IMG/VR virus record: IMGVR_UViG_3300032302_000065
Length of the DNA: 64,000 bases
Source of the DNA: a virus
Taxonomy: Duplodnaviria > Caudoviricetes
Strand: one strand, 5' to 3'
Shown: positions 6,175-12,368 of the stretch, one piece after another
Layout of the letters: each line of letters begins with the position of its first letter
Position numbering within the stretch: position 1 is the stretch's first letter
Position numbers and translations under genes: made by a program
The notes under the pieces: model-generated
Seen by the model: only the letters and a program-made list of their open reading frames with translations
Told to the model about the DNA's origin: nothing
Database searches by the model: none

Positions 6175-6203
6175 AGTATAGTTGATATTGATTGTAATGT
6201 CAA
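6175..6203 (-). promoter_or_regulatory. sigma70-like promoter for the Arg/Leu/Ile2 tRNAs
   Basis: TTGACA-N17-TATACT. Confidence 0.8.
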
Positions 6204-6371: not shown

Positions 6372-7031
6372 TTATTTAACAACTTCACAATTAAATGCTA
6401 AGATAATTCTATCTTCATCATCTTTATGTTCCGAACTTTCGTGATATATTAATGGTGGAAATAAAATTAAATCTCCATCATTTGCTGGAATCTTTACCGC
6501 TGGTATTGTATATTTTGTTAAAGCCAGTACTTCTTTGTATCGTGCGAAATATGAAGAATCTCTTCCTTGATTTCGACTTTTTCTCGGAAGTAAATCGATA
6601 AATGGATTTGGATTGTGCAAAATTGTTTCACCCCCATTTCCTTTTTTAATATAAAGAACTCCAGAAACTACGGCAGGATGTGCATGTATATGTTTTTGTG
6701 TTTTAGCACCACGCTTTTGTTTTGTGATCCATGAACGCCCAAATACACATCCTGGAATACCATAATATAATACATAAGAATCTACTGCACGTTGTAAATC
6801 TTTTTTTATATTGACACATGATGGAATTTGTGCTTCTATCATATCTAATGCATTTTCTTTATTCCAAAATGTTGTTTCGGCATTATCGGGACTACCAAAC
6901 AGACCATGATGATATTTTTGTGACTCGGACAAATTTTCTACAAATTCAATTATGTCATCAATTTGTTCTTTTGTCAATGCTTGTCCGGTAAAAACTGGAA
7001 TAGAAAATAAATCGTGAGACTTTAATTTCAT
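6372..7031 (-). CDS. Putative 2OG-Fe(II) oxygenase (TIGR02466-like)
   Basis: HxH...SGVLY...GDLILFP..I.H...RIILAFN. Confidence 0.8.
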   Translation of the reverse strand: MKLKSHDLFSIPVFTGQALTKEQIDDIIEFVENLSESQKYHHGLFGSPDNAETTFWNKENALDMIEAQIPSCVNIKKDLQRAVDSYVLYYGIPGCVFGRSWITKQKRGAKTQKHIHAHPAVVSGVLYIKKGNGGETILHNPNPFIDLLPRKSRNQGRDSSYFARYKEVLALTKYTIPAVKIPANDGDLILFPPLIYHESSEHKDDEDRIILAFNCEVVK

Positions 7032-9410: not shown

Positions 9411-9902
9411 TTATTTTTTTGATAAATTATCATCTTCTGGTTTATCAAAAGTCCTTACTGATAATGTTTTTATTCCAATATTTTTACGACCAAAGAATTC
9501 TTGTACATTATAAACGCCTTTGTTTATATCAACTTGAGAATCATTATCTGCAAGTACAGTTTGATCTATGATAAAACTTGGGTCAATAATTTCATCATTC
9601 ATATCACGCAATGCATGAATACATGTCATAATAGTATCATCTTCTTTTGCAGTTAGTCTGTGTCTAATATTTTTTCCGATAAAAATAAACATGGGTGCTG
9701 TGAAAATTTTTCCAACAATAACACTACCATCTTCATTCATTTTTTCAACAAGAACTTTACCTTTAGCCAAAAGCGTCCCGTGGTCATATTCATGGTAATG
9801 TCCCAATTCCACATCACCAGCTTTTTTGAAATTCATTAGTCTGCAATAAACATTGCTTACTGCTAAAATTTTTACTTCAGGTCCATCAATATCTTCTGTC
9901 AT
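9411..9902 (-). CDS. Cupin-fold protein
   Basis: GHYHEYDH.T.L..G and H.L.A.ED motifs. Confidence 0.7.
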   Translation of the reverse strand: MTEDIDGPEVKILAVSNVYCRLMNFKKAGDVELGHYHEYDHGTLLAKGKVLVEKMNEDGSVIVGKIFTAPMFIFIGKNIRHRLTAKEDDTIMTCIHALRDMNDEIIDPSFIIDQTVLADNDSQVDINKGVYNVQEFFGRKNIGIKTLSVRTFDKPEDDNLSKK

Positions 9903-9943
9903 AAAATATCCTTAATAATTAAATGTACATATAATATATATGC

Positions 9944-10019
9944 TGGAGTGAGTGACAGGAATCGAACCTGCATTATACGGACTTGCAAACCGTTGCCTAG
10001 CCTTTCAGCGCACACTCAC
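9944..10019 (-). tRNA. tRNA-Cys(GCA)
   Basis: Loop TT-GCA-AG, U73 discriminator. Confidence 0.85.
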
Positions 10020-10700: not shown

Positions 10701-10804
10701 TTTTAAAGAACATCTGATTGATTTCTCAATCTATGAATAGAGTATAACACTCTACACATTTTTTGTCAACAACAATTTTTGATAACTGTTGTTTTTTTGC
10801 AACA
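10701..10804 (-). promoter_or_regulatory. Internal tRNA-array promoter with palindrome and downstream boxA-like site
   Basis: TTGACA-N17-TATACT 10741-10769; TGTTG-N8-CAACA 10787-10804; TGTTCTTTAAAA 10701-10712. Confidence 0.75.
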
Positions 10805-10805
10805 C

Positions 10806-10893
10806 TGGCAGAGAGTATGAGATTCGAACTCATGCACCGCTTTCGCAATGACGGTTTAGCAAACCGCTCCTTTAACCACTCAGGCAACTCTCT
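10806..10893 (-). tRNA. tRNA-Ser(GCU)
   Basis: Long variable arm, CCA. Confidence 0.92.
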
Positions 10894-10900
10894 ATAACTT

Positions 10901-10990
10901 TGGCGGAAGCGGTGAGATTCGAACTCACGGAACATTTCTGTTCGTCTGTTTTCAAGACAGGTGCAATAAACCGGACTCTGCCACACTTCC
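10901..10990 (-). tRNA. tRNA-Ser(UGA)
   Basis: Long variable arm, CCA. Confidence 0.92.
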
Positions 10991-10996
10991 ATATCT

Positions 10997-11072
10997 TGGT
11001 GCAACCTAGAGGAATCGAACCTCTTTCAATGGTTCTTCAGACCACCGCTATGACCACATCAGCTAAAGTTGC
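10997..11072 (-). tRNA. tRNA-Phe(GAA)
   Basis: Loop CT-GAA-GA, CCA. Confidence 0.9.
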
Positions 11073-11074
11073 AT

Positions 11075-11149
11075 TGGCGCACCCTGAGAGAATCAAACTC
11101 CCAATTCCTCGTTCGTAGCAAGGTGTGATATTCATTTCACTAAAGGCGC
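11075..11149 (-). tRNA. tRNA-Arg(ACG)
   Basis: Loop CT-ACG-AA; divergent D and T loops. Confidence 0.82.
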
Positions 11150-11156
11150 TAACATT

Positions 11157-11233
11157 TGGTGCCCTCTCTCAGATTCGAACTGAGACTTTACGGCTTCTAA
11201 GACCGTCCTCTCTACCAATTGGAGTAAGAGGGC
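11157..11233 (-). tRNA. tRNA-Leu(UAG) with short variable loop
   Basis: Loop CT-TAG-AA, A73-CCA. Confidence 0.82.
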
Positions 11234-11238
11234 ATTTT

Positions 11239-11312
11239 TGGTGCTCAGTACAAGAATCGAACTTGTGATAAACGCTTATCAAGCGTCCGTTATACCATTT
11301 AACTAACCGAGC
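11239..11312 (-). tRNA. tRNA-Ile(GAU)
   Basis: Cloverleaf, CCA. Confidence 0.92.
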
Positions 11313-11318
11313 AAAATC

Positions 11319-11393
11319 TGGTACCTTGTGACAGGATCGAACTGCCGACCTTCTCCTTGTAAGGGAGACACTCTACCGCTGAGTTAACAAGGC
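11319..11393 (-). tRNA. tRNA-Val(UAC)
   Basis: Cloverleaf, CCA. Confidence 0.92.
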
Positions 11394-11402
11394 AATTTTC
11401 TT

Positions 11403-11478
11403 TGGGGTGACCTATGGGATTTGAACCCATCCTATCGGAATCACAATCCGAGGTGCTGACCGCTAACACTAAGGTCAC
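11403..11478 (-). tRNA. tRNA-His(GUG)
   Basis: C73-CCA, TTGTGAT loop; encoded -1 base is T. Confidence 0.9.
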
Positions 11479-11492
11479 ACCAAAGAAAACTA

Positions 11493-11604
11493 CTACCATA
11501 TAGAAACACATTATACAACAGGTTTAGGTCTGCTTCTGTATCCTGTTACGGCTGAGTATGAAGTTATCTCTAGACCTATGCCGTAATGTGTTTTTATATG
11601 GTAG
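11493..11604 (-). ncRNA. Putative structured ncRNA E3 closed by a 21-bp stem, kissing-loop core
   Basis: IR 11493-11513/11584-11604 (1 mismatch) enclosing 70 nt. Confidence 0.65.
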
Positions 11605-11673
11605 GGGCACAGAGAATCGAACTCTGATTAATAGGTTAAAAGCCTACTACTTTAGCCGTTAAGTTATACCCCC
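11599..11673 (-). tRNA. tRNA-Lys(UUU)
   Basis: Cloverleaf, CCA. Confidence 0.92.
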
Positions 11674-11676
11674 ATT

Positions 11677-11751
11677 TGGTGGTGACAGTTGGATACGAGC
11701 CAACGACCTCCTGCGTATGAAGCAGATGCACTACCGCTGTGCTATGTCACC
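11677..11751 (-). tRNA. tRNA-Met(CAU), elongator
   Basis: Paired 1:72, TT-CAT-AC loop. Confidence 0.85.
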
Positions 11752-11757
11752 ATTTAT

Positions 11758-11831
11758 TGGCAGAGGGTACAAGGATCGAACTTGTGCTAACAGAGTCAAA
11801 GTCTGGTGTGCTACCGCTACACTAACCCCCA
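11758..11831 (-). tRNA. tRNA-Gln(UUG)
   Basis: Cloverleaf, G73-CCA. Confidence 0.92.
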
Positions 11832-11854
11832 ACATAAAAAATATGGATGCAAAT

Positions 11855-11866
11855 TGTTAAAGAACG
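11855..11866 (-). promoter_or_regulatory. boxA antitermination element
   Basis: CGTTCTTTAACA vs rrn/lambda boxA consensus (T/C)GCTCTTTAACA, just before the first tRNA. Confidence 0.75.
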
Positions 11867-11892
11867 TTTGTAATATATTCGATGATATACAC

Positions 11893-11929
11893 AAAGAAAA
11901 ACCCCCTAGAGTTTTCAGTCTCTAGGGGG
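11893..11929 (-). terminator. Intrinsic terminator (attenuator) upstream of the tRNA array
   Basis: CCCCCTAGAG-actgaaaa-CTCTAGGGGG-TTTTTCTTT. Confidence 0.9.
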
Positions 11930-11965
11930 CTTGTCTTTGTATTCTCTTTAGGACTTTTTTGGTCC

Positions 11966-12082
11966 TCAGGTATAACAAGCCCCCATCACTGGTGCGTGGC
12001 AATCGGATTTCTCAAAGCGAGAAATACTCTGCCACGTAATTGGCATATAATTTCTTGTTGAGAGTTTCGAAATTAAATTCAT
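11966..12082 (-). CDS. Putative attenuator leader peptide containing all 20 amino acids (MNLISKLSTRNYMPITWQSISRFEKSDCHAPVMGACYT)
   Basis: 38 codons; ATG 1 nt after the upstream TAA; 3' end GGGGGCTTGT complementary to a segment overlapping the terminator 5' arm. Confidence 0.8.
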   Translation of the reverse strand: MNLISKLSTRNYMPITWQSISRFEKSDCHAPVMGACYT

Positions 12083-12083
12083 T

Positions 12084-12368
12084 TTAGAGTACCGTTTCTT
12101 TCGTATAAATGTTAGACCATTTCTGGAGTTTTTCTTTTTTCTTTCGTGATGCGTTATCTACTTCATCAATATTAATAATACCTGTTTCAATCATCAATTG
12201 AATCATACAAAATAAATCACCAACTTCTTCTGTCAATCGTTCACGATTAGATGCGCCATTGTGTTGTGCATGTAATCCAAATCGAAAAACCTTACTGATT
12301 GCCTGTGTCACTTCTGCACATTCTTCCTGTGCAATCAATAAAATTTCTTTCTCATTCGCATTAATCAT
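12084..12368 (-). CDS. MazG-like nucleotide pyrophosphohydrolase
   Basis: EECAEV.QA.SK..RFG and EEVGDL motifs. Confidence 0.8.
   Translation of the reverse strand: MINANEKEILLIAQEECAEVTQAISKVFRFGLHAQHNGASNRERLTEEVGDLFCMIQLMIETGIINIDEVDNASRKKKEKLQKWSNIYTKETVL

Follow-up and report, generated by a model that had tools for sequence, protein, structure and literature searches.

The locus lies on the minus strand of a 64,000-nucleotide stretch of DNA (hereafter the window, IMG/VR record IMGVR_UViG_3300032302_000065) from an uncultured T4-like myovirus of lake water, whose closest cultured phages, by the gp43 polymerase only (53% identity), are cyanomyoviruses. The final ordinary gene of the upstream operon encodes a MazG-like NTP pyrophosphohydrolase of 94 aa (12084..12368; phrog_4856, E 1e-23). 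It is followed by a leader ORF of 38 codons plus stop (11966..12082), with base 12083 as the sole nucleotide separating the MazG-like stop from the leader ATG; given this spacing, translation of the leader is probably coupled to that of the MazG-like gene. Codons 16-30 of the ORF form a nested hairpin in the MFE folds (11995..12036). A function in pausing or spacing is possible for this hairpin but not established; hairpins of other leader types sit at a similar position in their folds. Codons 33-36 make up segment 2, the 5′ strand of a predicted antiterminator (GGGGGCUUGU, 11975..11984): GGGGGCTTGT at 11984-11975 is the perfect 10-nt complement of ACAAGCCCCC at 11934-11925, which was assigned as segment 3 from complementarity, folds, and duplex energy. 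Segment 3 runs into the 5′ arm of a called intrinsic terminator (11891..11932; G+C-rich stem of 10-13 bp, 8-nt loop, T tract), and its alternative partners are segment 2 and the terminator 3′ arm. The terminator stem, 11929-11920/11911-11902 and then the T tract, counts 13 pairs, 7 of them G-C, with the full-length MFE fold as further evidence. The region as a whole folds strongly (z −7.1).

Downstream of the terminator, a 23-nt stretch (11866..11888) takes the place of a 93-nt promoter module, P2, carried by most relatives (comparison with L001, L004, L008, L009, and others). It is followed by a boxA-like element of the rrn type (GTTCTTTAACAATTTGC, 11849..11865), whose position is conserved in the two main groups of relatives, families A and B, and which we take to match the proteobacterial rrn boxA consensus. 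The criterion for a boxA, a consensus located between a promoter or terminator and untranslated genes, is met at 11865-11849; binding of NusB/NusE has not been shown. The first tRNA of the array, identified with ARAGORN, is tRNA-Gln (11831-11758), which opens a first block of 11 tRNA genes from Gln to Ser(gct) (10806..11831).

The leader ORF encodes all 20 amino acids and holds both codon boxes of Leu, Ser, and Arg, all four UCN codons, and 23 of the 24 elongator decoding classes (the classes matching the 25 tRNAs of the window), AUA alone being missing. Its composition is flat, without any run of identical codons or residues. A first-pass annotation of the sequence had claimed this composition, the start of the ORF 1 nt past the MazG-like stop, the complementarity of codons 33-36 to the 5′ side of the terminator, the hairpin over codons 16-30, and the order of terminator, boxA, and first tRNA; all were confirmed by codon counts and folds at the coordinates given above.

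Null models were built from the amino-acid and codon frequencies of the long ORFs of the window. With this usage, the probability of finding all 20 amino acids in 38 aa is 0.004, and that of at least 23 of 24 decoding classes in 38 codons is 5e-4; when the window is read in all six frames, which gives 407 ORFs of 30-60 aa, the leader ranks first for decoding-class coverage. By these measures, its coverage lies beyond chance. The duplex between the ORF end and the 5′ side of the terminator reaches −22.8 kcal/mol, compared with a mean of −4.3 and a best value of −8.9 in 657 upstream control windows. A single window still leaves room for one lucky ORF of such coverage, and the comparative evidence is decisive. 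Codon rarity was considered as a signal and given no weight, the codon adaptation of the leader being only mildly low (5th percentile of synonymous recodings). A second 38-codon ORF of the window (9899-10015, minus strand), with 22 of 24 decoding classes, overlaps tRNA-Cys and is probably due to chance.

Records of cultured phages yielded no relative of the locus in DNA searches, near and distant, or in tblastn searches with the leader peptides. Family A comprises 18 IMG/VR viral and 40 JGI metagenome loci, all sharing the layout of MazG-like gene, leader, terminator, boxA, and tRNA array. The MazG-like stop and the leader start are at most 4 nt apart in all family-A relatives, the form of the junction varying, and the family-A leaders show neither a promoter of their own nor a Shine-Dalgarno sequence. 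Twenty kinds of amino acid occur in 11 of the 24 distinct family-A peptides, 19 kinds in another 11, and 18 kinds in two; Phe and Val are the only residues ever absent. The most distant member (L178, 46% identity) has kept all 20 amino acids, with Tyr and Cys having swapped places and Phe and Val standing at new positions.

Family B was first met in a scan for the boxA motif, as a very different ORF heading a tRNA array; further members were gathered by the 3′ end of the ORF and, independently, by a peptide motif from its middle. The family-B ORF shares 11-18% identity with the peptide of the window, the positions common to both families being a Pro and a Trp in all members and a Ser/Thr-Arg in most. 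Family B yielded 32 distinct peptides of 37-45 aa, differing by many indels, of which 28 have the full set of 20 amino acids and four have 19. These leaders have their own consensus promoter (P1), the −10 box of which ends 6-10 nt ahead of the ATG. It is inferred from this spacing that the family-B mRNA is leaderless or nearly so, and that a ribosome can load once the 5′ end emerges.

A search blind to the leader, using a pattern made from tRNA-Gln alone, matched 17 loci, and a leader was present at every array head for which upstream DNA was available. The only tRNA-Gln without a leader (L322) stands in mid-array, behind its own promoter. This search returned a further family-B-like leader with no promoter between terminator and tRNAs (L320), as well as one (L326/L327), also family-B-like, whose switch carries a compensatory change. 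Two new sequence types were also recognized, type C (L321) with 41 codons and type D (L324) with 37 codons, each encoding 19 kinds of amino acid. The expectation that a short ORF of poorly conserved sequence would recur upstream of related tRNA arrays was borne out: the ORF is kept and near-complete coverage with it, while the sequence drifts down to 11% identity. Despite the indels, the leader frame is open in all of the roughly 130 other loci with a leader, the exception being one family-B locus (L206). There the leader is cut by a premature stop or frameshift, being either a decayed leader or an assembly error, and the pairing of ORF end and terminator, P2, boxA, and tRNA-Gln are all intact.

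Taken from lake-water phage contigs, 58 distinct leader peptides of 37-45 aa, homologous or analogous to one another, were compared for composition. All 20 kinds of amino acid were present in 39 of them, 19 kinds in 17, and 18 kinds in two, where the null models give a mean of 16.2 kinds and a probability of 0.003-0.016 for 20. All 24 decoding classes are held by 20 of 30 unique family-B ORFs (null probability 8e-6 to 3e-4). With the peptide fixed and synonymous codons drawn at random, 6-8% of the ORFs would be expected to cover all eight split boxes; family B in fact shows 22/30 such ORFs, and family A 5/12. Both Leu boxes occur in 30/30 family-B ORFs, and in one family-B clade the two Leu codons beside the conserved Pro have exchanged boxes jointly. 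When residues were shuffled within alignment columns, only 25% of the family-B peptides still had all 20 amino acids, against an observed 90% that none of 3000 shuffles attained; in family A the share fell from 58% to 33% (p 0.01). Relatedness was not controlled in either test. This collapse indicates that completeness rests on coordinated changes across positions and not on conservation site by site. The single-copy residues Y, C, H, Q, and V occupy differing positions in different members, and conserved residues show synonymous variation, which argues that the frame is read. That the composition of the leader is under selection is near certain, and, as far as sequence comparison can tell, the target of selection is the completeness of the codon repertoire, not the sequence.

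The second conserved property is the complementarity of the ORF end to the terminator. Against about 650 upstream windows, the last eight codons plus stop were the best partner of the 5′ side of the terminator in all 41 unique leaders, with duplexes of −17 to −28 kcal/mol compared with control means of −4 to −6. The four sequence-distinct leader types (A, B, C, and D) all set the end of the ORF opposite the 5′ arm of the terminator. The pairing strand is of the G5CUUGU type in type A, G3U4GG with a variable extension in type B, GGUC...CGGGGU in type C (L321), and GGGUUUUGUG in type D (L324); each is matched by the arm of its own terminator, and the sequences are wholly different between types. 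Within family B the 9-bp pairing core is invariant and hence uninformative, with the exception of L326, in which one G-C pair of this core is replaced by A-U in a compensatory manner. The complementarity noted in the window is therefore conserved across relatives, in four sequence versions and with one compensatory G-C to A-U replacement.

When the RNA was folded up to a point before the terminator 3′ arm, the antiterminator formed in seven of nine leaders, the other two not having retained segment 3, and in each of the four leaders of the set anchored on tRNA-Gln; the window fold ending there forms the helix of segments 2 and 3. In L016, L320, and L326 the antiterminator is also the MFE structure at full length. 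The homologue of the terminator in family B has 98% of its cells paired and covaries, with four pairs changed on both sides. Judged by its G+C-rich hairpin, U tract, and compensatory stem changes, the predicted terminator meets the criteria of an intrinsic terminator. In family B the antiterminator and terminator overlap by only 3-5 G-C pairs and an A tract, and some full-length MFE structures keep both.

The stop codon lies inside or just beyond segment 2 in all types, 18 nt beyond it in type D. With the stop so placed, a terminating ribosome would cover and mask segment 2, or in type D only its 3′ part. No competing partner of segment 2 was seen in the folds: the nested hairpin (12036-11995) excludes the segment and coexists with the 2:3 helix. 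With no partner seen to sequester segment 2, the untranslated state should read through, unlike in trp. We hold it to be quite likely, on the whole of this evidence, that the alternative pairing is functional.

The first-pass annotation had read the element as ribosome-mediated attenuation of the trp/his type, and this reading gains support from the conserved coverage and from the ORF-end pairing in four leader types. RNA polymerase coming from the upstream MazG-like operon would transcribe the leader, followed by a ribosome coupled from the MazG-like stop. As long as decoding keeps pace, the ribosome at the last codons or the stop would cover segment 2; segment 3 would then pair with segment 4, the terminator would form, and transcription would end at about 11897. 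Should the ribosome lag at an earlier codon, or never load, segment 2 would pair with segment 3 first and no terminator would form, letting the polymerase continue through boxA into the tRNA genes. The element would thus clock the overall speed of decoding like a stopwatch, by OR logic across the tRNA species, and feed back on tRNA transcription, its regulatory codons being the whole code, about one codon per amino acid and almost every decoding class. Host shut-off, starvation, and anticodon nucleases are candidate causes of the tRNA loss that it might register.

This model builds on computed properties, namely selection on the ORF composition, alternative pairings conserved in different sequence, a canonical terminator, and a position at the head of the tRNA region. 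It is inferred that the ORF is translated, that termination follows the position of the ribosome, that read-through rises when charged tRNA is scarce, and that the benefit is compensation for tRNA loss. With these inferences, we think it likely, though by a measured judgement, that the leader is a ribosome-mediated attenuator that times decoding over all tRNA classes, slow translation letting upstream transcription into the tRNA genes. Whether its purpose lies in general homeostasis or in a response to host shut-off or to a tRNA-cleaving defence is a matter of inference, and a role in counter-defence is an untested inference. It remains a tentative proposition, possible but open to serious doubt, that the element is a general sensor of decoding speed in which a near-pangram leader serves as an OR gate inducing the array when any host tRNA becomes limiting, with its codons co-evolving with the repertoire.

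Several observations weigh against the attenuator reading. The sensitivity of classical attenuators depends on runs of regulatory codons, and each decoding class occurs about once in the leader. The frame of L206 is broken with the pairing intact, and family A has no Shine-Dalgarno sequence, which leaves its translation dependent on coupling. Contigs from four lake metatranscriptomes cover the MazG-like gene with the first ~70 nt of the leader and, separately, the tRNAs, and none of them spans 11924-12000; such contigs show neither ends, strand, nor level, and carry-over of DNA is possible, so that they carry no weight for or against the reading.

The codon content of the leader was compared with the tRNA repertoire of its phage. 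The leader as a simple copy of the phage tRNA set was rejected, since one genome (G004) lacks the Tyr, Asp, and Asn tRNAs and yet its leader retains those codons, and another locus (L014) has tRNA-Phe but no Phe codon. The leader reflects the full set of amino acids, not strictly the tRNAs of its own phage, and tracks the repertoire only loosely. Among the family-A leaders, replacement of the Phe codon by one for Ser, Leu, or Ile is associated with absence of tRNA-Phe from the first tRNA block (16/3 vs 1/6, Fisher p 0.002, relatedness uncorrected). The complete genome G005 has no Phe codon in its leader, and its tRNA set is that of the window minus Phe. The tracking of tRNA-Phe by the Phe codon, resting on two or three independent events, is suggestive only. 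According to the model, a stall within the last ~6 codons should escape sensing, as would apply in the window to Val, Gly, and Ala and in family B to its sole Asp codon. Val, the other residue that family A can lose, stands seven codons before the stop, where a paused ribosome would have segment 2 masked already and so fall in this blind zone.

The surroundings of the leader bear on what the switch controls. In five complete or near-complete genomes of 150-171 kb, 143 of 144 tRNA genes lie in one region starting directly after the leader; the remaining one, a tRNA-Gly of G002, lies ~7 kb beyond this region. The leader element was found only at the heads of tRNA arrays. Nearly all family-B members and most of family A carry P2, a strong consensus promoter between terminator and boxA, which is a cassette of ~70-90 nt (for example, L001:3490-3582, compared with 11866-11888 of the window) whose presence or absence is polymorphic among near-identical leaders, one and the same leader variant existing in both states. 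P2 is absent from the window, from the complete genome G005, from six other family-A loci, and, on the family-B side, from L320. The 23-nt stretch of the window contains no promoter site with at least 9 of 12 matches, a single 8/12 match found by eye being under the scan threshold. A hidden promoter considered at 11860-11831 (9/12) was rejected, since its end coincides with base 1 of tRNA-Gln and transcripts would begin within that gene. Further along the minus strand, the nearest consensus promoter is at 10769-10741, and no promoter belonging to the first block of 11 tRNA genes itself was seen in the window.

The claim that the leader gates the tRNA array therefore holds in part. Without P2 or another promoter for it, the first 11-tRNA block of the window is fairly described as gated. 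In most relatives, P2 would supply the array, and the contribution of the switch to tRNA transcription can only be an additional one, perhaps of modest size.

Further consensus promoters occur inside the tRNA region of the window (10741-10769, 6175-6203, and 6949-6977, minus strand), as does a second boxA-like element before tRNA-Glu at about 10701-10712 (minus strand); with these internal signals the array consists of several transcription units, only the first of which is behind the leader. Three complete family-B genomes, G001 (L256), G002 (L257), and G003 (L258), each encode a tRNA with the anticodon CUA, labelled Pyl by ARAGORN, which is a candidate amber suppressor. In eight more distant relatives (L020, L059, L062, L064, L071, L076, L077, and L080), a tmRNA gene of the permuted, two-piece kind, encoding tags such as ANDERFALAA, lies ~2-2.6 kb downstream of the MazG-like gene, as one more translation-rescue function that these phages bring along.

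The distribution of P2 is one ground for the rival explanation that survives best, in which the leader is a real all-codon sensor of translation with an output other than tRNA transcription, the array running from its own promoter. Candidate outputs would be a short trans-acting leader RNA, through its abundance or stability, or a peptide whose synthesis requires every tRNA to work. A consensus promoter does stand downstream of the terminator in nearly all of family B and most of family A, the promoter and terminator of family B make its leader a self-contained small transcription unit, and a few peptide positions are conserved over both families. Variants without P2 nevertheless recur, leaving the first tRNA block with no other visible promoter, and the restriction of the element to the heads of tRNA arrays, the association of the Phe codon with tRNA-Phe, and the specific pairing of the ORF end with the terminator arm, a signature of read-through control, all speak against such an output. 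We regard this explanation as unlikely, without setting it aside, and tRNA transcription as the probable output of the switch, with some reservation.

It is very improbable that the leader is an ordinary gene for a small phage protein followed by an operon-ending terminator, its composition and complementarity being by-products of what the protein does and of the length of the terminator stem. The conserved ORF with its synonymous changes, and the common occurrence of terminators after early operons, would suit such a gene. No Pfam family was matched by four leader peptides, however, and the two families share 11-18% identity though the composition is kept, with residues relocating and codon boxes swapping; selection for protein function cannot account for coverage of 24/24 decoding classes, which is a property of the codons, and the pairing has been re-invented in four different sequences. 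An RNA-only region, such as a processing or pause structure before the tRNA precursor with an incidental frame, has the strong fold and the pairing kept in L206 on its side and can hardly be maintained against the frame open in all the other leader loci despite indels, the synonymous changes at conserved residues, and the start codon placed exactly where the upstream gene stops (family A) or where the transcript is predicted to begin (family B), and it leaves the amino-acid and codon-box coverage unexplained.

The attenuator preferred here was compared with known systems. Like the enterobacterial trpL, hisL, pheL, leuL, and thrL leaders and the multivalent leader of ilvGMEDA, it has a short translated ORF, as proposed, just ahead of an intrinsic terminator; in both, the end or stop of the ORF lies on a segment able to pair with the 5′ arm of the terminator, and the ribosome position that selects antiterminator or terminator in the enterobacterial attenuators is proposed to do the same in the phage leader. 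The enterobacterial attenuators use runs of codons for one or a few amino acids and control biosynthetic enzymes, whereas the phage leader has about one codon per decoding class and would control tRNA genes. No trp-type 1:2 anti-antiterminator is evident in the phage leader, and family B is predicted to use a leaderless mRNA, unlike the enterobacterial attenuators. In Rfam, the His_leader model scored 29.9 bits, short of its threshold of 49 bits, and 27.2 bits on the other strand; occurring on both strands, this sub-threshold match was attributed to the terminator hairpin. Seven other leader loci gave tRNA hits only in Rfam, the T-box model gave no hit at E up to 1 in the window or 0.5 in the other leader loci, and Rfam holds no family for this leader.

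T-box riboswitches also couple tRNA charging to terminator read-through and control genes of the translation apparatus; unlike the phage leader, they bind one uncharged tRNA directly, without a ribosome. The ermCL, cat/cmlA, and bmrB (bmrCD) leaders share the idea that a ribosome stalled on a short ORF, and not the lack of one amino acid, reshapes the RNA and so turns genes on. For bmrB, transcription attenuation is the reported mechanism (PMC4191407). These antibiotic-sensing leaders depend on drug-dependent arrest peptides and serve resistance genes, whereas no sign of a specific arrest motif is seen in the phage leader and codon coverage is what is selected. With rrn boxA/Nus antitermination the phage locus shares a boxA-like element ahead of untranslated genes; in the phage it lies downstream of the switch, as a separate module and not a sensor, and would resist later termination.

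Full-text searches of the literature returned neither an account of such a leader nor one of attenuation acting on phage tRNA genes. To our knowledge, leader-peptide attenuation has been described only for one or a few amino acids and for biosynthetic or resistance genes, and we know of no other gene under selection for the completeness of its codon repertoire. Since the promoters and boxA resemble their proteobacterial counterparts, the idea is directly testable in E. coli reporters. If true, it would establish a direct feedback loop from the speed of translation to the transcription of tRNA genes, and the leader would be the first attenuator known to regulate tRNA genes. It would explain how large phage tRNA arrays are tuned, and it would bear on the part played by phage tRNAs against tRNA-cleaving defences, for which the element would provide an inducible, self-limiting counter-defence.
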